NCBI GenBank assembly: GCA_946631295.1
Contig: CAMOZY010000004.1
Location: forward strand, 2,316 to 66,315
DNA from: an uncultured Lachnospiraceae bacterium
GTDB taxonomy: Bacteria > Bacillota > Clostridia > Lachnospirales > Lachnospiraceae
Length of the DNA: 64,000 nt
Direction: 5' to 3'
A program made the translations under genes and the position numbers. The notes beneath the pieces were generated by a model that had not been told where the DNA came from, did not search any database, and saw only the letters and a program-made list of their open reading frames with translations. Below are positions 48,331-56,057 of the stretch, piece by piece. The stretch's first letter is position 1. Every line of letters begins with the position of its first letter.

Positions 48331-50610
48331 TCATTTGATGATATCAAGGATCAGCTCGGGGGGAAGATTCTTCTTTACGCTGTCTTCCAGTTCGTAGGGA
48401 TCGACCGGCTTAGCAAGATATCCGTCGAAGCCTGCTTCCAGATACTTCTCCATACTGCCCTGCACTGCATTGGCGGTGAGTGCGATCTGAGGCGTGCTCC
48501 TGTTCGGATTGTTTTCATCTCCGCGGATGATCTGCATTGTCTCTATTCCGTCGGGGCTTGGCATCATATGATCCATAAAGATCACATCATACTTCTTTCT
48601 CTTAGACAGATCTATCGCTTCATTTCCACCCGGAGCCTTATCTATCTGTACCTTGGTACCCTTGAGAAGATTTACGAATACCGTAAGGTTCATTTCATTG
48701 TCATCAACTATAAGTATCTTAGCATCCGGTGCAGTGAAGGAAGCTTCATACTTCCTGCGTCTTCCCTTCTCCTTATCCTTCTTCAGTTTGATTGCTCCGA
48801 CAAGCGTATTATCTGCGATCTTCTGAGGTATCTTGACGGTAAATACGGAGCCTTCACCATAACGGCTTGAAACCTTGATCTCTCCGCCCATTCCCTCACA
48901 AAGCTTCTTCGTTATCGCAAGTCCGAGTCCTGTTCCTTCGATGTGGCGGTTTCTTTGAATATCCGCTCTTGAAAAACTGTCAAAGATATGACCTATATCC
49001 TCGTTTCTTATTCCGATTCCGGTATCACTGACAGTTACCAGAAGATCATATCCGTCCGCCTTATAATCTCCTGTAACGGAGATCCTTACATATCCGATAT
49101 TTGTGTATTTAACTGCATTAGTGATGAGATTGATAAGTATCTGTTCAATCTTGCCCTCATCTCCTGTAAGAACTGAAGGCATTCCGGGATCCACATCAAG
49201 TGAGATCCTGAGGTTCTTTTCCGCAGCCCTCTTTTCAAGCATATTTCCGCAGTTCTGAACAAGTTCCATTACGGAATAATCCTTTTCATCAAGCTCGAAA
49301 TTGCCGGCTTCTATCTTGGAAAAATCGAGAACGTCATTGATGAGGTTAAGAAGCATGTGTCCTGCTTTTTCAACATCTCTGGAATATCCCAGAATAACCA
49401 GATCATGGGATTCTCTGGTGATCATCTCATTCATGCCAAGGATCGTATTAATGGGAGTTCTGATCTCATGTGACATGGATGAAAGGAAACTGCTCTTTGC
49501 ATTGGAAGCTTCAAGAGCACGCTTTTCCGCGATGGCGAGCTTCTCATTCTTATCCTCGATGGAGGAAATATATTCGCTTTCTTTTGTGACATCATAAAAC
49601 TCGATCAGATAGCCGATCATGTCATCGCTGTCACGGTGCAGGAACTTCTTTTTACGAAGATACTTGACCTCACTTCTCAGAACGTGGCCGGAACGTCTCA
49701 GTGTCTTATGATATACGGATCTGGTGCCCTCTCCGTCTTCTTTTACCATAGCTGAAAACTGTTCGAGAAGTTCAGTAACCTCCTTAAGGTCACCATTCAG
49801 CTTCCTGTCTATCTCCTGCTTTTCAAGAGCATCAAAATACTGTCTTGCCAATGCATTGGAGCCAAGATACTGCTTCTTTTTGTCGAATACGATATACGCA
49901 TACTCCTCCATCTTCTCCCAGGTACGCATGACGTTATAAGACATGTCATACATTTCAACCCTGTTGAAAACAAGAAGTATGATGATCTCCGTAATCAGAT
50001 ATCCAACGCTGTTCCATTCAAAATCGACCTTGAACATTCTGTCCAGTGCATAGATAAGGACATTGACAATGAGGAAAACGGAATACATTACCGTGGTTTT
50101 ATAGGATACGATATTCCTTCTCCTGATCGCTTTTGCACAGATAACACCGCAGCCGACAATATAAAATGCCAGCATAAGAACATGAGTGATATGTAACGGT
50201 CCGTACTCTTTTACGAGGACCGTATATCCGCCCGCATCCGCAATATCTATGCTTTTGTAGTAAATGGGTAGACGGCCTATGGTAAAAGTAAAACCAATGA
50301 CCACCGAAGAACATAAGAAAGTAAGAAAACGGACAAGATGAGGGATACGTATCTTGGTAACATCAGCACCTATGCAGAAAACGAAGAAAGGAAGATAGCA
50401 TCCGCCAAAATATATGCAGCAGTTTCCAAGTATCGCCGCATCGAGAGTTTTTGCAATGGAAACGGCCAGATATCCGCCATTTGAAACAATAATGGCGCAC
50501 ATCAGCAAAACCGTATATATATTTGGTCTGACACCGGATTCAACCAGTAACAGAATATTAAATACGGCGAAAATAAACGCGATGAGATATACGAGCGTAA
50601 CAATGTTCAA
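48331..50610 (-). CDS. Hybrid sensor histidine kinase/response regulator with a 7TM N-terminus
   Basis: H-box MSHEIRTP, N-box NLITNAVKY, DTGIG, GTGLGL, REC domain IFMDHMMP and AKP. Confidence 0.94.
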   Translation of the reverse strand: MNIVTLVYLIAFIFAVFNILLLVESGVRPNIYTVLLMCAIIVSNGGYLAVSIAKTLDAAILGNCCIYFGGCYLPFFVFCIGADVTKIRIPHLVRFLTFLCSSVVIGFTFTIGRLPIYYKSIDIADAGGYTVLVKEYGPLHITHVLMLAFYIVGCGVICAKAIRRRNIVSYKTTVMYSVFLIVNVLIYALDRMFKVDFEWNSVGYLITEIIILLVFNRVEMYDMSYNVMRTWEKMEEYAYIVFDKKKQYLGSNALARQYFDALEKQEIDRKLNGDLKEVTELLEQFSAMVKEDGEGTRSVYHKTLRRSGHVLRSEVKYLRKKKFLHRDSDDMIGYLIEFYDVTKESEYISSIEDKNEKLAIAEKRALEASNAKSSFLSSMSHEIRTPINTILGMNEMITRESHDLVILGYSRDVEKAGHMLLNLINDVLDFSKIEAGNFELDEKDYSVMELVQNCGNMLEKRAAEKNLRISLDVDPGMPSVLTGDEGKIEQILINLITNAVKYTNIGYVRISVTGDYKADGYDLLVTVSDTGIGIRNEDIGHIFDSFSRADIQRNRHIEGTGLGLAITKKLCEGMGGEIKVSSRYGEGSVFTVKIPQKIADNTLVGAIKLKKDKEKGRRRKYEASFTAPDAKILIVDDNEMNLTVFVNLLKGTKVQIDKAPGGNEAIDLSKRKKYDVIFMDHMMPSPDGIETMQIIRGDENNPNRSTPQIALTANAVQGSMEKYLEAGFDGYLAKPVDPYELEDSVKKNLPPELILDIIK

Positions 50611-52565
50611 GATTTACTCTGCCCCATAAACTCTACGTACTCCGCTTCGCTCATAGGCTTGGCGTAGTAGAAACCCTGAATGAAATCACAGCCCTGCTCT
50701 TCGAACCAGTCCGATACTTCCTTGGACTCAACACCTTCAACAACGATATGTGCACCCATGCTCTTAATGAGATTGATCGCCTCGCCGAGAATTCTTCTCT
50801 TGGCGGGGTCGACAGCTTCATCTGTAAGAGTCTTATCAAGCTTGATGACCTTATAAGGGAAGGACATGACCCTGTGAAGGTTGGAATAACCCGATCCGTA
50901 ATCATCAAGTGAAAACTTAAGTCCTTCCGCCGACATTGCGTTCATTGTCTCAAGAACTCTCTCATACGCTCCGTCTGCGGCAGTCTCGGTTATCTCGAAA
51001 TTGATCCAGCTCGACTCGATCCTGTATTCCTTCATGTAATACTTGATCTTTTCGGCCATATCAGCCTGCATGCACTGGATGATCGAAAGGTTGACCTCTA
51101 TATAATCCACCCCGAGGTCCTCAGGAGTATGTTCTGACAGGAATCTGCATACATCCTTTATTACAAAATCACCGATGTTGACGATCCTTCCGGTCTTCTC
51201 TGCCGCGGGAATGAATACTGCGGGAGGTATGGATCCGAACTCAGGTGAATTAAGTCTGATAAGTGCTTCGGCACATTTGTATTTCTTTTCCTTGAGGGAA
51301 TAGATCGGCTGGTAATACATCTCGAACCTGTCATGCTTGATGGCATCTTCAATGATGTTGTCGATCGAATTGAGTATTACGAATTCCCTGTCAAAAGAAA
51401 TCTCGGAATATACAACAGGCTTGCCGGGTTCGATCAGATTCTGTATGCGCTCTGAGAACTTGAGAAGCTCATCCTTGGACGCTATGTCCTTTGGAATATC
51501 AACTGAGCATACACACATCTCAAGCTGAAGATCGAATCCGTCTTCGGAAAAGCCTTGGGAATATCTCCTGTTCAGCTTCTCCATCTGCTTGAGGACAAGA
51601 TTCCTGTCGAAACGTCCCTGCACGATCATCGCATAAAGTCCGCCTCTTAAGTAATACAGATCGGTCGATGCAAGGAGTCCTTTGTATCTTTCCTTTACGA
51701 GAGTATCACCTGCGGAATGAAGAACTCTGCGGTATACTCTGATGTCGGTAAGGCTTCTGATCTCCGAATCATTGGAGATCTTCGCAAAAACGATCATCGC
51801 GTTTCTCTTGCTGAGGATGATGTTCTCGACATCGTTTTCAAAGGGTATATACGATGAAAGTCCTGTTTCAATGTCTATTGATTCGTCAGGTCTGAATACG
51901 AAGAAGGCAAGTATCAGCATTGAAAGGGATGCGCCGAACATTGCCGTCATCAGTTCGGGATACATGTCCTGGATAAGTATGGCCGCAACATTCACGGGAT
52001 AAACCAGGAGCATGGAAAGGAACTTCTCTACGCTGAGCCTCTTCCTGATCACAAAGAGCTGGACAAGGCTGAAGATCATGAAGTAGAAACCGAAATAATC
52101 ATATACGGTCATCAGATCACCGCGTACATAGCACACGGAATCGTCGGTAAGAGTATAGTAAAAGATCCTCTGGGTAAAGAAATTCGAGTAACAGAATCCA
52201 AGGAATGCGATGAGCGGTCCGAAATAAAGAATTGCAAGCTTAGGGTCAGATTTGATCCTGCTCCAGCTTCCGCTCATCAGAGCATAGATCCTTATAAGGA
52301 TCGGCATCTGTATCGCTCTGAGGAATATGAAGATATATCCCATAATGAACTTGAACAGAACAGATGTCTCAAGAGCCGTACCGGTATACGGAAGTGCCCT
52401 CAGTATATCAAAAACACAGCTTAGGATAAGAACTATCCCCAGCTGTAAGAATGCCCTGTTAAGCCTGCCGCGGTGCATCTTGCGAAGAAGCATCGAAACA
52501 AGTATCGCAAGGAGCATACATATACTGCAAATATCAAAATAAATCACGCGGTCCACTATCTGCAC
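50607..52565 (-). CDS. Membrane c-di-GMP phosphodiesterase (7TM + degenerate GGDEF + EAL)
   Basis: EALIRL, EITE, DDYGSGYS, EGVE, QGFYY intact; GGDEF position degenerate (LRGGLY); GTG start; 4-nt overlap with the kinase. Confidence 0.9.
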   Translation of the reverse strand: MQIVDRVIYFDICSICMLLAILVSMLLRKMHRGRLNRAFLQLGIVLILSCVFDILRALPYTGTALETSVLFKFIMGYIFIFLRAIQMPILIRIYALMSGSWSRIKSDPKLAILYFGPLIAFLGFCYSNFFTQRIFYYTLTDDSVCYVRGDLMTVYDYFGFYFMIFSLVQLFVIRKRLSVEKFLSMLLVYPVNVAAILIQDMYPELMTAMFGASLSMLILAFFVFRPDESIDIETGLSSYIPFENDVENIILSKRNAMIVFAKISNDSEIRSLTDIRVYRRVLHSAGDTLVKERYKGLLASTDLYYLRGGLYAMIVQGRFDRNLVLKQMEKLNRRYSQGFSEDGFDLQLEMCVCSVDIPKDIASKDELLKFSERIQNLIEPGKPVVYSEISFDREFVILNSIDNIIEDAIKHDRFEMYYQPIYSLKEKKYKCAEALIRLNSPEFGSIPPAVFIPAAEKTGRIVNIGDFVIKDVCRFLSEHTPEDLGVDYIEVNLSIIQCMQADMAEKIKYYMKEYRIESSWINFEITETAADGAYERVLETMNAMSAEGLKFSLDDYGSGYSNLHRVMSFPYKVIKLDKTLTDEAVDPAKRRILGEAINLIKSMGAHIVVEGVESKEVSDWFEEQGCDFIQGFYYAKPMSEAEYVEFMGQSKS

Positions 52566-52689
52566 CTTGACCGAAACGCTCCCTTCTGCTCATTCATAGT
52601 TATTATATCAGCACTTTCATGCTTTAAACAACCGAAAAAAGCAAAGAAAAAGGCTAAAAATTGTTAATTTCAGCATATAGGAAGCTTTT

Positions 52690-53802
52690 TCAGAACAGAA
52701 TGTCCTTAAAACAGATAAGCGGCTTATTATTTTCATAGTCAAAGCTGTGATGAGCTCCGCCGGCACACCACTTTTCATACTCACATTCCATGCAGTTTTT
52801 GTTGCGAAGTGAAAGATGCTTTCTGAAGGTTTCGAACCTGTTTTTCCATATATCCGAAAAAAGATCGTTATTTACATTGCCGAATATGACCTCATCATTA
52901 GGCATGATATCCAGGCATGCTGTAATACTTCCGTCCGATCTTATGCTTGCCGTAAAAACTCCGGCATTGCACAAAAACATCCTCTTTCTTACATTTCCTT
53001 CGATATCCGGTCCGAGGAAATGAGAGCAGCCGTATTCGACCGGATATCCCTGTCTTCTTTTATCAATGATAAAAGAAAACATCCTTCTCTGGTCTTCAGG
53101 CGTAAGGAGCATATCGGGCCTTTCCAGCGCACGGCCGATAGGCTCTATGCCGATCACTCTCCAGGAATCCACATCCATACCGTTAACTATTTCAAAGAGC
53201 TCATCAAGCTCTGAGATATTCTTGTGGTTCACCACAGTCGTGATCTGTATTGCATGGAATCCGCCTTCATCTATGAGATTCTGTATTCCTCTCATAGCGA
53301 GTGCATATCCGCCCCTAAGTCCTCTCTGGGCATCGTGAGTCTCTTCAAGTCCGTCTATGCTGACAGATATCGTCTTCATACCGGCTTCACGAAGCTTATG
53401 AGCAGCCTCTTTTGTGATAAGCGTTGCATTTGAAGTCATGCCCCATGCGAATCCCTTATCGTTTATCATGTTCACGATATCAAAGAAATCGCTTCTTATC
53501 ATCGGCTCACCGCCGGTTATGCAGATAAGGATCCTGCGCTTATCGAAATTTGCATCCACATCGTCAAGGATCTGCGCATACTTTTCGAGGGACAATCCCG
53601 AGATCTGACCGGGCTCGCATCCGGATCCGCAGTGAAAACATCTCTCGTTACACTTAAGTGTAAGTTCAAAAAAAAGATGTCTGAGGTCGGGCTTTACATA
53701 AAGAGACTCCCTGACCTCAGACCTTCTGTCCAAAATCTGTTCCTTAACCTTTATGAGAGCAGGATCTTCTACAGCATATGCTTTGAATTCCTTAAGATCC
53801 AT
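52690..53802 (-). CDS. Radical SAM/SPASM peptide- or protein-modifying enzyme
   Basis: C51-x3-C55-x2-C58 (CNERCFHC), ITGGEP, SIDG; SPASM-type Cys in YGC, LCNAG, TAC, CMEC, WCAGG, LICF. Confidence 0.92.
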   Translation of the reverse strand: MDLKEFKAYAVEDPALIKVKEQILDRRSEVRESLYVKPDLRHLFFELTLKCNERCFHCGSGCEPGQISGLSLEKYAQILDDVDANFDKRRILICITGGEPMIRSDFFDIVNMINDKGFAWGMTSNATLITKEAAHKLREAGMKTISVSIDGLEETHDAQRGLRGGYALAMRGIQNLIDEGGFHAIQITTVVNHKNISELDELFEIVNGMDVDSWRVIGIEPIGRALERPDMLLTPEDQRRMFSFIIDKRRQGYPVEYGCSHFLGPDIEGNVRKRMFLCNAGVFTASIRSDGSITACLDIMPNDEVIFGNVNNDLFSDIWKNRFETFRKHLSLRNKNCMECEYEKWCAGGAHHSFDYENNKPLICFKDILF

Positions 53803-54263
53803 TAATCCTCTCCTTGCTTATTACTGTCATTACTGCCATTTTCAGTATCTTCAAAATATTCAGGCGGTCCGTAAACCGGTACTGAAGGCTCACCGGAGCC
53901 CTCAGTATCAAACCATTCCGGAGGCCCGTAAACCACCACTGAAGGACCATCAAAATCTTCGTCCTCAAAAAACTCGGGAGGCCCGTATACATCCTCCATC
54001 GGACCATCTTCTTCACCTTCATCCTCTTCAAACCAGTCGGGCGGTCCGTATACGGTATTAATGGGACCATCCTGATCATCGTCATCTATGGCAGGAGGAG
54101 GACCGTAAACAGGATCCTGGGGACCGACTATATCCTCGGGCGGCCCATATACATCAGGGGCAGGATCATTAACCGAGCCAAAGCTGCAACCCGTAAGGCT
54201 TAACATGGCTCCGAGTGTTGTGACGGCTGCCGTAAAAGTAAGCTTTTTGTCATTCTTTTTCAT
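53802..54263 (-). CDS. Acidic lipoprotein with six VYGPP repeats; probable substrate of the adjacent radical SAM enzyme
   Basis: Basic N-terminus, hydrophobic core, lipobox LTGC (Cys26); VYGPP with Tyr at 39, 53, 72, 93, 112 and 131; SD GAGAGGG; stop overlaps the rSAM start (TAATG). Confidence 0.85.
   Translation of the reverse strand: MKKNDKKLTFTAAVTTLGAMLSLTGCSFGSVNDPAPDVYGPPEDIVGPQDPVYGPPPAIDDDDQDGPINTVYGPPDWFEEDEGEEDGPMEDVYGPPEFFEDEDFDGPSVVVYGPPEWFDTEGSGEPSVPVYGPPEYFEDTENGSNDSNKQGED
53853..54152 (-). repeat. Six intragenic VYGPP repeats with synonymous codon variation
   Basis: GT(A/T)TA(C/T)GG(G/A/T)CC cores at roughly 42-63 nt spacing. Confidence 0.9.
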
Positions 54264-54286
54264 ATGGCACCCTCTCTGATAAGTTC

Positions 54287-55975
54287 CTAGATGTATTCAA
54301 GACCCTTTTCATGATAATCGGGTGTAAGAAGCACCTTCTCAAATTCTTCCCTTGGAAGAGGCTTGTCAAAATAATATCCCTGACCGTGATAGCATCCGTA
54401 TTTCTTCAGGAGTTTGATATGATCGGTTGTCTCAACTCCCTCCGCAATGGTGGACATATCAAGATCCGAAGCGATGGAAATGATATGCTTCATCATCACC
54501 ATATCACGTTTACTGATGTCCGCGTTATCAAGGAAGCTCTTATCTATCTTGATCTCGCTGAAGGGAATATCCTTGATCATGCTCATCGATGAATAGCCGA
54601 CACCGAAATCATCGACAGACACCTCAAATCCCTGCTCCGCAAATTCATCCACGAGCTTGTGAAGTCTGATCATATCCGCTTCCGAAGTCGTCTCGGTAAC
54701 CTCAATTACAATAAGAGAATGAGGTATGTTATGCTTGTCGACTATCTCCGTAATTTCCTTTACGAAATTCGGATTGCTGAGGTGTTTTCTTGAAAAGTTT
54801 GAAGAGATCCTGACCGGCTGTTTTCCTTCAGACATCCATCTTGCAAGATCTGCACATACATGGTCGAGTATATAAAAATCAAGAACACAGATGCGCTTGC
54901 TTCTTTCAAGAATGGGAATGAACTGATCAGGCATCACCTGCTTTCCGCCTCTGAACCATCTGCAGAGAGCCTCAGCACCTACGAGCTTGAAGTTGGCAAG
55001 ATTAACCTTGGGCTGATAGAAGGCCTTGAATTCCTCATTGCGTATGGCAGCCTTGAAGGTGGATTCGATCTGCCTTGTATTGGTCATCATATCGATCATC
55101 TTCTGATCGAAATACTGGATCTGACTGTTTCTCGTATGCTTTGCATTCAGCATGGTAGCCTGCGCATTATCAAGGCACTCGTTAAAGCTCTTCTCCTTAC
55201 CGGTGCAGTGATAAACTCCGCAGTATGCTCCGAGCTTGACAACAGATACCTCTCCCGCATCTACATTGATATGGATTCCCTCGAGGATCTCAAGGATCTT
55301 TTCTGTCTTTTCCTGCCTTGTCAGGATACAGAAATTATCACCGCCCATCCTGCAGAGGCATTCCGGCGATTCAAGCATATCCGATACGGTTCCTGTGAAT
55401 TTAAGCATGACCTGATCGGTCATTTTTCTGCCGAGCAGCGAATTAAGACCAGAAAGATTTACGAGATTGAAAAATATGATGGTGTATTCGGACATGCGTT
55501 CAAGCTTCATGACCATCCCCATCATTCTGGTGAGGTAAAAGGCATTAAAATAACCAAGCTCCATCTCATGGAATATAGCATAATCGATATATTCCTTCAT
55601 CCTGATACGGCTCTTGATAGTTGAAAGTATGAGGAGAAAACCTCTGACATGTTCCTTCTCTTCATCGGTCCAGAAATGACCGATAGTCGGATAAACGCTG
55701 AGCTTGACAACTGCACCGTTGGAAATGACCATACGGTTTATGACACAGTCGTCATCATTGATGGAATATGAATCATAATAAACCATCTGCTTGGACGGCT
55801 CATCGCGAAGTTCTGCGTTCATATCGGGATACTCTGTATAATTAACGCGGCCGATGCTCAGAATGCTTACAAGCTCACGCGAATACTCGTCATCCCTGTC
55901 GCTGTCATAGGCGATGACCCCGGCTTCCTTGCAGAAGTAATCATACAGTTTTGCTTTGATCTTATCTGTTTCCAT
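54287..55975 (-). CDS. Cytoplasmic GGDEF(GGDNF)-EAL protein; start likely 55975
   Basis: RMGGDNF; EALCRW, EVTE, DDFGVGYS, EGVE; no TM; TTGTCT-17-TAAAAT promoter upstream. Confidence 0.9.
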   Translation of the reverse strand: METDKIKAKLYDYFCKEAGVIAYDSDRDDEYSRELVSILSIGRVNYTEYPDMNAELRDEPSKQMVYYDSYSINDDDCVINRMVISNGAVVKLSVYPTIGHFWTDEEKEHVRGFLLILSTIKSRIRMKEYIDYAIFHEMELGYFNAFYLTRMMGMVMKLERMSEYTIIFFNLVNLSGLNSLLGRKMTDQVMLKFTGTVSDMLESPECLCRMGGDNFCILTRQEKTEKILEILEGIHINVDAGEVSVVKLGAYCGVYHCTGKEKSFNECLDNAQATMLNAKHTRNSQIQYFDQKMIDMMTNTRQIESTFKAAIRNEEFKAFYQPKVNLANFKLVGAEALCRWFRGGKQVMPDQFIPILERSKRICVLDFYILDHVCADLARWMSEGKQPVRISSNFSRKHLSNPNFVKEITEIVDKHNIPHSLIVIEVTETTSEADMIRLHKLVDEFAEQGFEVSVDDFGVGYSSMSMIKDIPFSEIKIDKSFLDNADISKRDMVMMKHIISIASDLDMSTIAEGVETTDHIKLLKKYGCYHGQGYYFDKPLPREEFEKVLLTPDYHEKGLEYI

Positions 55976-56057
55976 CAAATTCCCCGATTTAGTAAATTTT
56001 ATCACAAAACAGTCATTCAGACAAAAAGAATATCAAATAATTCCCGTCAAAAAACAA

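Follow-up and report, generated by a model that had tools for sequence, protein, structure and literature searches.

A lipoprotein with six VYGPP motifs and an adjoining radical SAM/SPASM enzyme form a putative protein-maturation cassette in an uncultured Lachnospiraceae bacterium

Results

The lipoprotein and enzyme genes

The DNA analysed here, referred to as the window, is a stretch of 64,000 nucleotides of contig CAMOZY010000004.1 (assembly GCA_946631295.1) of an uncultured Lachnospiraceae bacterium. On its minus strand the gene of a small lipoprotein carrying six VYGPP motifs is followed by that of a radical S-adenosylmethionine (SAM) enzyme with a SPASM region (Table 1). The six motifs, the LTG-C26 lipobox, the TAATG overlap of the two genes and the cysteine anatomy of the enzyme, which an original prediction had read from the letters alone, were all found again at the same positions. 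Our analysis indicates that the two genes probably constitute a protein-maturation cassette, in which the enzyme would recognise each VYGPP and carry out a radical reaction centred on its tyrosine.

The lipoprotein begins with MKKNDKKLTFTAAVTTLGAMLSLTG-C26, Cys26 being the sole cysteine of the protein. Its signal is composed of a positively charged n-region (MKKNDKK), a hydrophobic core (LTFTAAVTTLGAMLS) and a lipobox that satisfies the consensus [LVI][ASTVI][GAS]C, so that lipidation is predicted. The mature part contains 17% Pro, 29% Asp plus Glu and 13% Gly. The last four copies of the motif share the frame P-x3-VYGPP-(D/E)-(W/F/Y)-F-(D/E), and the codons vary among the six copies (GTA/GTT, TAT/TAC, GGG/GGT/GGA, CCG/CCT and CCC/CCT/CCG for the five successive residues). 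When the mature part was shuffled 200,000 times, no round gave two or more VYGPP, against the six observed. The protein matched none of the Pfam and NCBIfam models, in the latter case even at E <= 10, and does not contain the substrate motif of the sulfatase-maturating enzyme anSME, (C/S)-x-(P/A)-x-R. A Shine-Dalgarno sequence (AAGGAGAGG) stands directly 5' of the TAATG overlap; this overlap indicates translational coupling of the lipoprotein and enzyme genes.

Table 1. Features of the lipoprotein and enzyme genes, in window positions
Feature	Position	Strand	Basis
Lipoprotein gene, 153 aa, acidic, Pro/Gly-rich, putative substrate	53802..54263	minus	open reading frame and translation
Lipoprotein signal peptide, residues 1-26, lipobox L-T-G-C26	54186..54263	minus	sequence read directly; lipidation predicted
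VYGPP motif 1, residues 38-42	54138..54152	minus	sequence
VYGPP motif 2, residues 52-56	54096..54110	minus	sequence
VYGPP motif 3, residues 71-75, frame P-x3-VYGPP-D-W-F-E	54039..54053	minus	sequence
VYGPP motif 4, residues 92-96	53976..53990	minus	sequence
VYGPP motif 5, residues 111-115	53919..53933	minus	sequence
VYGPP motif 6, residues 130-134	53862..53876	minus	sequence
TAATG overlap, lipoprotein stop TAA / enzyme start ATG	53800..53804	minus	junction AAGGAGAGGATTAATGGATC
Radical SAM/SPASM enzyme gene, 370 aa, TIGR04133-like putative maturase	52690..53802	minus	Pfam, NCBIfam
C51-x3-C55-x2-C58, radical SAM [4Fe-4S] cluster motif	53629..53652	minus	invariant in both alignments of relatives
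SPASM region, residues 259-364; Cys 259, 278, 296, 337, 340, 346, 364	52711..53028	minus	putative ligand roles

Conservation of the pair in close relatives

We aligned 20 relatives of the enzyme and took 80 loci from species-representative genomes, where the enzymes are 54-88% identical to that of the window; at 79 of them the upstream sequence is present, and these are the informative loci. The host lineages of these enzymes are Lachnospiraceae, Oscillospiraceae/Saccharofermentans, Erysipelotrichaceae and Coriobacteriia, for the most part of the rumen. The closest relatives belong to rumen Lachnospiraceae, in agreement with the Firmicute host proposed beforehand. Cultured carriers among the relatives are Lachnospiraceae bacterium AC2028 (L005), [Eubacterium] cellulosolvens LD2006 (L016) and the Ruminococcaceae bacteria YAD3003, AB4001 and YRB3002 (L021, L025 and L029).

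At 77 of the 79 loci an open reading frame with YG(P/A)P lies directly 5' of the enzyme gene on the same strand. It carries from one to seven motifs (median 4), and at most of the 77 loci the frames of partner and enzyme abut or overlap. Outside the partner genes, YG(P/A)P appeared as scattered single matches in about 700 kb of six-frame translation. Clustering of all neighbour proteins across the 80 loci gave no other conserved neighbour, the remaining genes differing from one lineage to another, and no protease, no exporter, no protein resembling a RiPP (peptide made on the ribosome and modified after translation) recognition element (RRE) and no PqqD-type protein. Judging from these neighbourhoods the pairing of the two genes is not due to chance, and the functional coupling previously proposed for them is borne out by an adjacency which is the sole conserved one.

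The motif itself was analysed in the partner proteins. The pattern used to collect the 239 motifs imposes Tyr, Gly and the +3 Pro; of the other positions, +2 is Pro in 99% and -1 is Val in 92%. Independently of this pattern, 74% of the tyrosines of the partner proteins are followed by Gly, and Tyr-Gly is followed by Pro or Ala in 283 cases out of 286. Between the nine closest relatives there are differences in the spacers, in indels and in the number of motifs (5-8); some copies have decayed, the rest of the motifs being kept. Selection on the YGPP motif, suspected from the window, is supported by this persistence.

In 70 of the 77 partners, automatic recognition picked out a charged n-region together with a hydrophobic stretch and a Cys, and the MKKxxKKLTF...GC signal recurs in the partners of close relatives. 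Disparities appear between lineages: the Firmicute partners have Sec-type MKK..KLTF signals, unlike those of Coriobacteriia, which together with one other lineage have lipoprotein signals of the twin-arginine type (MKKLTRRGFTAAGILAALG...GC; L040, L049, L056, L059, L064, L074 and L075). In partners from Saccharofermentans/Oscillospiraceae the first motif comes immediately after the anchor Cys (...AVEG-C-VYGPPP) and the lipobox departs from the usual form in having Glu at -2 (L021, L023-L025, L027, L030, L031, L033, L036, L039, L041, L042, L044, L050, L053, L061, L062 and L069); later motifs in these proteins often have an added Cys at -2 (CVYGPP), found in 44 of the 239 motifs. One partner (L026:2098-4002) reaches 634 aa, with seven YGPP and, by eye, a Big_2-like immunoglobulin-like domain ahead of the repeats, so that larger surface proteins can also receive the motif region.

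Recurrence of the motif next to distant enzymes

An exhaustive search returned 267 enzyme clusters (at 50% identity) with E <= 1e-30. For ten cluster representatives out of the ten sampled, TIGR04133 is the best model, always below its cut-off (194-391 bits). The neighbourhoods described next belong to enzymes about 35% identical or less to that of the window. Two small lipoproteins with two KYGPP each are encoded upstream of the enzyme of Clostridium swellfunianum. Downstream of the enzyme lie a lipoprotein with about nine (L/M/E)YGP(P/M/Q) repeats in a deltaproteobacterial metagenome-assembled genome, and a membrane protein with KYGPPP and KYGAP in Methanocella. On a JGI contig labelled 'rSAM/lipoprotein system' (L083) a lipoprotein carries LYGPR. 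A search of the partner proteins of the distant relatives against NCBIfam gave no match to TIGR04134. The 'lipo-invert C-terminal anchoring domain' (NF058595) was considered for the Clostridium KYGPP lipoproteins and discarded, its score being 17 bits (cut-off 37) and not reproduced on other partners.

The motif was also found in other contexts. Two enzymes, P0125 (L086:3266-4636) and P0140 (L087:4001-5368), hold one (I/L)YGPP(E/P)M, set between zinc ribbons, in a C-terminal tail of their own, and no separate motif gene was found near either of them. At L208:1050-3204 the enzyme is fused to an N-terminal GNAT acetyltransferase, and this fusion is overlapped by the gene of a 183-aa cytoplasmic multi-zinc-ribbon protein with IYGPMPE (EPYDNAIYCIYGPMPE). 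Since the motif is thus borne by lipoproteins, a membrane protein, zinc-ribbon proteins and enzyme tails, the conserved feature of the partners is x-Tyr-Gly-Pro and not their lipoprotein nature.

Two further architectures were encountered among the relatives. In P0118, 58% identical to the window enzyme, a GNAT domain is located at the C-terminus. The enzymes of a sister clade (P0142, P0144, P0145, P0148, P0155 and similar), with 37-39% identity and 531-560 aa, are extended at the C-terminus by about 200 conserved aa; a JAMM peptidase was envisaged for this extension from a string HSHP...S..D seen by eye, yet it has no Pfam match and the assignment was not retained.

Family and fold of the enzyme

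The enzyme scores 73.5 bits with Radical_SAM (PF04055, cut-off 29.5) and 35 bits with SPASM (PF13186, cut-off 21.5). The fourth Cys of C-x2-C-x5-C-x3-C is replaced (C337-x2-C340-x5-C346-x3-A350): the string WCAGGAHH stands in place of C-x3-C, and PLIC364F comes later. C278, C296, C337, C340, C346, H352 and C364 are invariant in an alignment that goes down to 31% identity. The residue at the replaced position is Ser in P0125, P0140 and P0274, three relatives read by eye. In the first auxiliary cluster, one coordination site would be open or filled by a residue other than Cys, perhaps His.

Among NCBIfam families TIGR04133 ("rSAM_w_lipo") comes first, with 277.6 bits (E 1.2e-82) over residues 27-366 of 370, below its cut-off of 425. 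The AhbD model comes second (149 bits, cut-off 500), followed by TIGR04053 (129 bits, cut-off 395), TIGR04103 (nif11-class maturase 3; 127.3 bits over residues 41-361, cut-off 725) and MftC, aligned over the full length (126.6 bits, cut-off 265). The closest solved structures by profile are SkfB (79 bits) and CteB (77), with anSME at 48.5 bits; none is close. The AlphaFold model of the enzyme has a predicted local distance difference test (pLDDT) of 85. Its best fold match is anSME (Foldseek E 2e-14, template modelling (TM) score 0.68-0.70), then SkfB, SuiB, ChlB and CteB; overall these matches have TM scores of 0.6-0.7 with 18-22% identity. The modelled fold is that of a generic SPASM enzyme of the protein- or peptide-modifying type. 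In the model the N-terminal stretch of about 45 residues before the cluster motif is mainly one helix (residues 14-36), which we take to be too short for an RRE domain.

The original prediction had considered that the enzyme might group with cofactor-biosynthesis or with sulfatase-maturase families. A cofactor-biosynthesis enzyme (AhbD/NirJ-like) was rejected: these matches lie mostly in the core domain and score about half as high as TIGR04133, and no heme or other cofactor pathway gene was seen among the six window neighbours (Pfam) or in the neighbour-protein clusters of the 80 loci. The likeness to anSME appears at the level of the fold only.

Relation to the catalogued rSAM/lipoprotein system

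TIGR04133 and TIGR04134 together denote an 'rSAM/lipoprotein system', a pair of computationally defined hypothetical equivalogs of NCBIfam/TIGRFAMs. In that system, as in the window, a radical SAM/SPASM enzyme adjoins a small lipoprotein, and TIGR04133 is by far the best family for the window enzyme. The link to this system drawn in the original prediction is real as regards the family, and does not extend to membership, the enzyme being under the curated cut-off and the lipoprotein having no match. From TIGR04134 the window lipoprotein is set apart by the model search. The partner in the window differs by being long and acidic with six VYGPP, and the clade by its occurrence in rumen and gut Clostridia, Erysipelotrichia and Coriobacteriia. 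By its scores the window pair appears to be a divergent branch of this catalogued but uncharacterised system. The system had been ascribed to Bacteroidetes. The wider TIGR04133-like group is not restricted to that phylum: Clostridium relatives score best on TIGR04133, still below cut-off, and the deltaproteobacterial and Methanocella enzymes are homologues of these Clostridium relatives. In the literature we found no experimental study of TIGR04133/TIGR04134 or of a YGPP system; the survey of Scott et al. 2022 (Chem 8:2659) may include the clade.

Genes around the pair in the window

The window neighbours, as identified by Pfam on six genes, include a GGDEF-EAL protein, an EAL membrane protein, a hybrid histidine kinase and a glycosidase of glycoside hydrolase family 3 (GH3). 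As had been noted from the window, no protease or exporter stands beside the pair among these six. The cassette belongs to a same-strand run (48331-56005, minus) in which the GGDEF-EAL gene (54287-56005, minus) is located 23 nt upstream of the lipoprotein gene, while the membrane EAL protein (50607-52565) and the hybrid histidine kinase, which has seven transmembrane segments (48331-50610), are encoded beyond the enzyme. The order GH3, GGDEF-EAL, lipoprotein, enzyme, EAL, hybrid kinase is restricted to the closest Lachnospiraceae (L001-L007); in L012 and L016 a GGDEF-EAL gene is likewise found 5' of the pair. This synteny hints at a co-regulation with cyclic-di-GMP signalling, in the closest lineage only.

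Discussion

A proposed motif-directed maturation of the lipoprotein

The adjacency of the pair, the conservation of the motif, its recurrence over long evolutionary distances, the fusions and the fold matches to protein- and peptide-modifying SPASM enzymes all argue for the maturation cassette. The enzyme-substrate relation between the enzyme and the motif protein is well supported by these genomic data. We infer three further points, namely action at the motif, modification before export and the identity of the atom attacked.

Because SAM and reduced Fe-S clusters are required, the enzyme would act in the cytoplasm, on the newly made lipoprotein and before its export. The recognition unit would be the motif itself, the enzyme being without an RRE domain and no conserved partner protein being present nearby. 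VYGPP would be bound as a turn, the Gly-Pro turn presenting the tyrosine, and the first step would be abstraction of the Tyr C-beta hydrogen by the 5'-deoxyadenosyl radical, an electron being taken up by the auxiliary clusters. Export of the modified protein, as yet unfolded, would come next, followed by lipidation of Cys26; on the cell surface the protein would present as many as six modified sites. The product in the window would be a lipid-anchored, acidic and disordered surface protein, whose role may be that of a protease trap, protease resistance or adhesion.

A precedent exists for such a pathway. anSME is a cytoplasmic SPASM enzyme which modifies a (C/S)-x-(P/A)-x-R turn in sulfatases before they are exported. 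Its short motif has Pro or Ala at +2, as here, where this position is Pro or occasionally Ala, and anSME (PDB 4K36-4K39) is the best fold match of the window enzyme. The two differ by a sequence identity of 18-19%, by the target, which would be Tyr here and is Cys or Ser for anSME, and by Ala350 in place of the fourth Cys of C-x2-C-x5-C-x3-C, with the invariant His352 instead. MftC and PqqE act on the tyrosine of a peptide (Val-Tyr in MftA, Glu...Tyr in PqqA). They resemble the window enzyme as Tyr-directed SPASM enzymes, and the MftC model aligns over the full length; the scores are nevertheless under the cut-offs (265 and 381, respectively). MftC needs a C-terminal Tyr, and both MftC and PqqE need a PqqD-type partner.

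A broader proposal can be made tentatively, in which x-Tyr-Gly-Pro would serve as a tag, short and portable, that is recognised by a very large radical SAM/SPASM clade; its enzymes would install a new Tyr-centred modification on whole proteins. The clade, which comprises the 267 clusters given above, is spread over Firmicutes, Actinobacteria, Deltaproteobacteria and methanogenic Archaea, and the targets would be lipoproteins, membrane proteins, cytoplasmic zinc-ribbon proteins and sometimes the enzyme's own tail.

Several observations weigh against the cassette and its extension. The L067 and L077 enzymes have no motif gene within 4 kb. These two Lachnospiraceae enzymes, 54-55% identical to that of the window, have a cation-diffusion-facilitator-like gene upstream instead (judged by eye); they may be orphan enzymes, possibly acting in trans. 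The YGPP tail of P0125 is placed without confidence by AlphaFold (pLDDT 36-49 in the tail, about 49 at the motif). As some partners are cytoplasmic, surface display would not be the general function. Finally, an unbiased metagenome scan for two in-frame YGPP gave 120 matches, most of them in unrelated Gly/Pro/Tyr-rich low-complexity proteins (PGYGPPPGYGPPP type) and six of the acidic lipoprotein type. The enzyme adjoins three of these six lipoproteins (L124, L130 and L153); none adjoins the other three (L150:2360-2617, L158:4663-4914 and L181:6618-7463), with at least 650 bases available downstream. Regarding the possibility, raised at the outset, that VYGPP lipoproteins commonly occur without the enzyme, this small sample gives such lipoproteins in three cases out of six. 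Judged by eye, the genes around L150 and L158 are glycoside-hydrolase-like or LD-carboxypeptidase-like; both look like Bacteroidetes loci. From these counts the association appears near-obligate from the enzyme side and looser from the motif side. Such an asymmetry fits an enzyme acting in trans on several tagged proteins; it may also leave room for an independent role of the motif.

Nature of the proposed modification

Two readings bear on the chemistry of the product, with some probability left for other outcomes. The first, which we hold as possible, is a Tyr-centred cross-link or oxidation that leaves the backbone intact. The cross-link would be a three-residue cyclophane joining the Tyr ring to the +2 Pro, as in triceptides; the oxidation, at C-beta, would turn Tyr into a species that is dehydro-, hydroxy- or quinone-methide-derived. 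In both cases the disordered tether would become stiffer and be shielded from proteases. Y, G and P are all essentially invariant, as expected of one ring or turn, and motifs of the aromatic-x-x kind, in repeats, typically go with cyclophane-forming SPASM enzymes. Moreover, the best fold match, anSME, oxidises the C-beta in its (C/S)-x-(P/A)-x-R turn, and the auxiliary-cluster cysteines are conserved, as electron removal needs. These points are offset by the generic character of the fold matches, with the TM scores and identities given above, and by the NCBIfam search, in which no triceptide or other cross-linking family scores well. To our knowledge there is no precedent for Pro as a cross-link acceptor.

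The second reading is that of a splicease, the activity proposed in the original prediction, and we consider it slightly less likely than the first. A tyramine equivalent (-135.07 Da) would be excised at each V-Y-G, leaving an alpha-keto-beta-valine. The lipid-anchored protein would thereby carry as many as six electrophilic ketoamides and might be a protease trap at the surface. X-Y-G is the splicease site, and in the motif Tyr and Gly are invariant with X varying by clade (V, K, L, I, M, E). The TIGR04103 alignment extends over the full length of the enzyme; we presume that TIGR04103 and IPR026482 are the same family and that this is the splicease family. We know of no splicease motif in which an invariant +2 Pro (or Ala) takes part, which counts against this reading. 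PlpX has been placed in IPR026482 (PMC11002830). The spliceases PlpX, PcpX and RhaX, which produce spliceotides, are SPASM radical SAM enzymes acting on X-Tyr-Gly sites, on repeats and on whole proteins (PMC11414181, PMC9811515, PMC11626197), some systems being binary and having no Y protein (PMC11414181, PMC9811515). According to the summary given in PMC10849128 of the survey by Scott et al. 2022, rSAM-SPASM enzymes with YG-rich neighbours occur in 189 genera. The score with TIGR04103 is nevertheless far from the cut-off (127 against 725 bits), equal to that of MftC (127) and under that of AhbD (149), and therefore denotes no specific splicease kinship. Searches of the substrate with Pfam and NCBIfam and of the neighbour clusters found no NHLP/Nif11 leader, no PlpY or RRE gene and no evident activating leader helix. 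The window system also differs from spliceases in that the motif is joined to an invariant Pro and the substrate is an exported lipoprotein. What links it to them is the X-Y-G likeness; by score the enzyme is outside the splicease family as presumed here.

Other explanations of the pair

It is improbable that the lipoprotein is a multi-core precursor whose acidic spacers would be cleaved outside the cell by proteases, setting free a small modified peptide in several copies, as in fungal repeat-core RiPPs. The variable copy number (1-7), the acidic, aromatic and poorly conserved spacers and the export signal carried by the precursor would suit this scheme. A protease or an exporter is conserved at none of the 80 loci, however, many partners have just one or two motifs, often right after the lipid-anchor Cys, and other partners are membrane or cytoplasmic zinc-ribbon proteins. 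The earlier proposal of a modified surface protein rather than a released RiPP is supported as to release, no protease or exporter being conserved in any clade; as to the surface it does not extend to the relatives in which the motif lies in a cytoplasmic zinc-ribbon protein or in the enzyme's own tail.

Still more improbable is the absence of any enzyme-substrate relation, with YGPP as a structural or binding motif (a polyproline-II linker or a ligand) and an enzyme acting elsewhere whose gene is merely co-regulated: YGPP-type repeats are indeed common in unrelated Gly/Pro/Tyr-rich proteins, some true-type YGPP lipoproteins have no adjoining enzyme and the next-best family matches are cofactor enzymes of the AhbD/NirJ type, but the adjacency is kept across phyla with no other shared neighbour, the frames of the two genes frequently overlap, in two lineages enzyme and motif are fused and the neighbourhoods surveyed hold no heme or cofactor pathway genes.

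Significance of the system

Radical SAM maturases have mostly been studied on small released peptides. From the data on the cassette described here, whole proteins, many of which are exported, would be modified under the direction of a motif. Anaerobes of the rumen and gut carry the system in abundance, and related enzyme-motif pairs reach Deltaproteobacteria and Archaea. Its target, Tyr-Gly-Pro, is sharply defined and the cassette consists of two genes only. The outcome would be either a splicease-type backbone editing widened to surface proteins or a new Tyr modification, and in both cases thousands of 'radical SAM protein' annotations would gain a named function. Protein engineering could also profit from a tag that is short and self-sufficient. 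Should the product prove to be a ketoamide, this would be the first case in nature of protease-reactive warheads arrayed on a protein at the surface of a bacterium.

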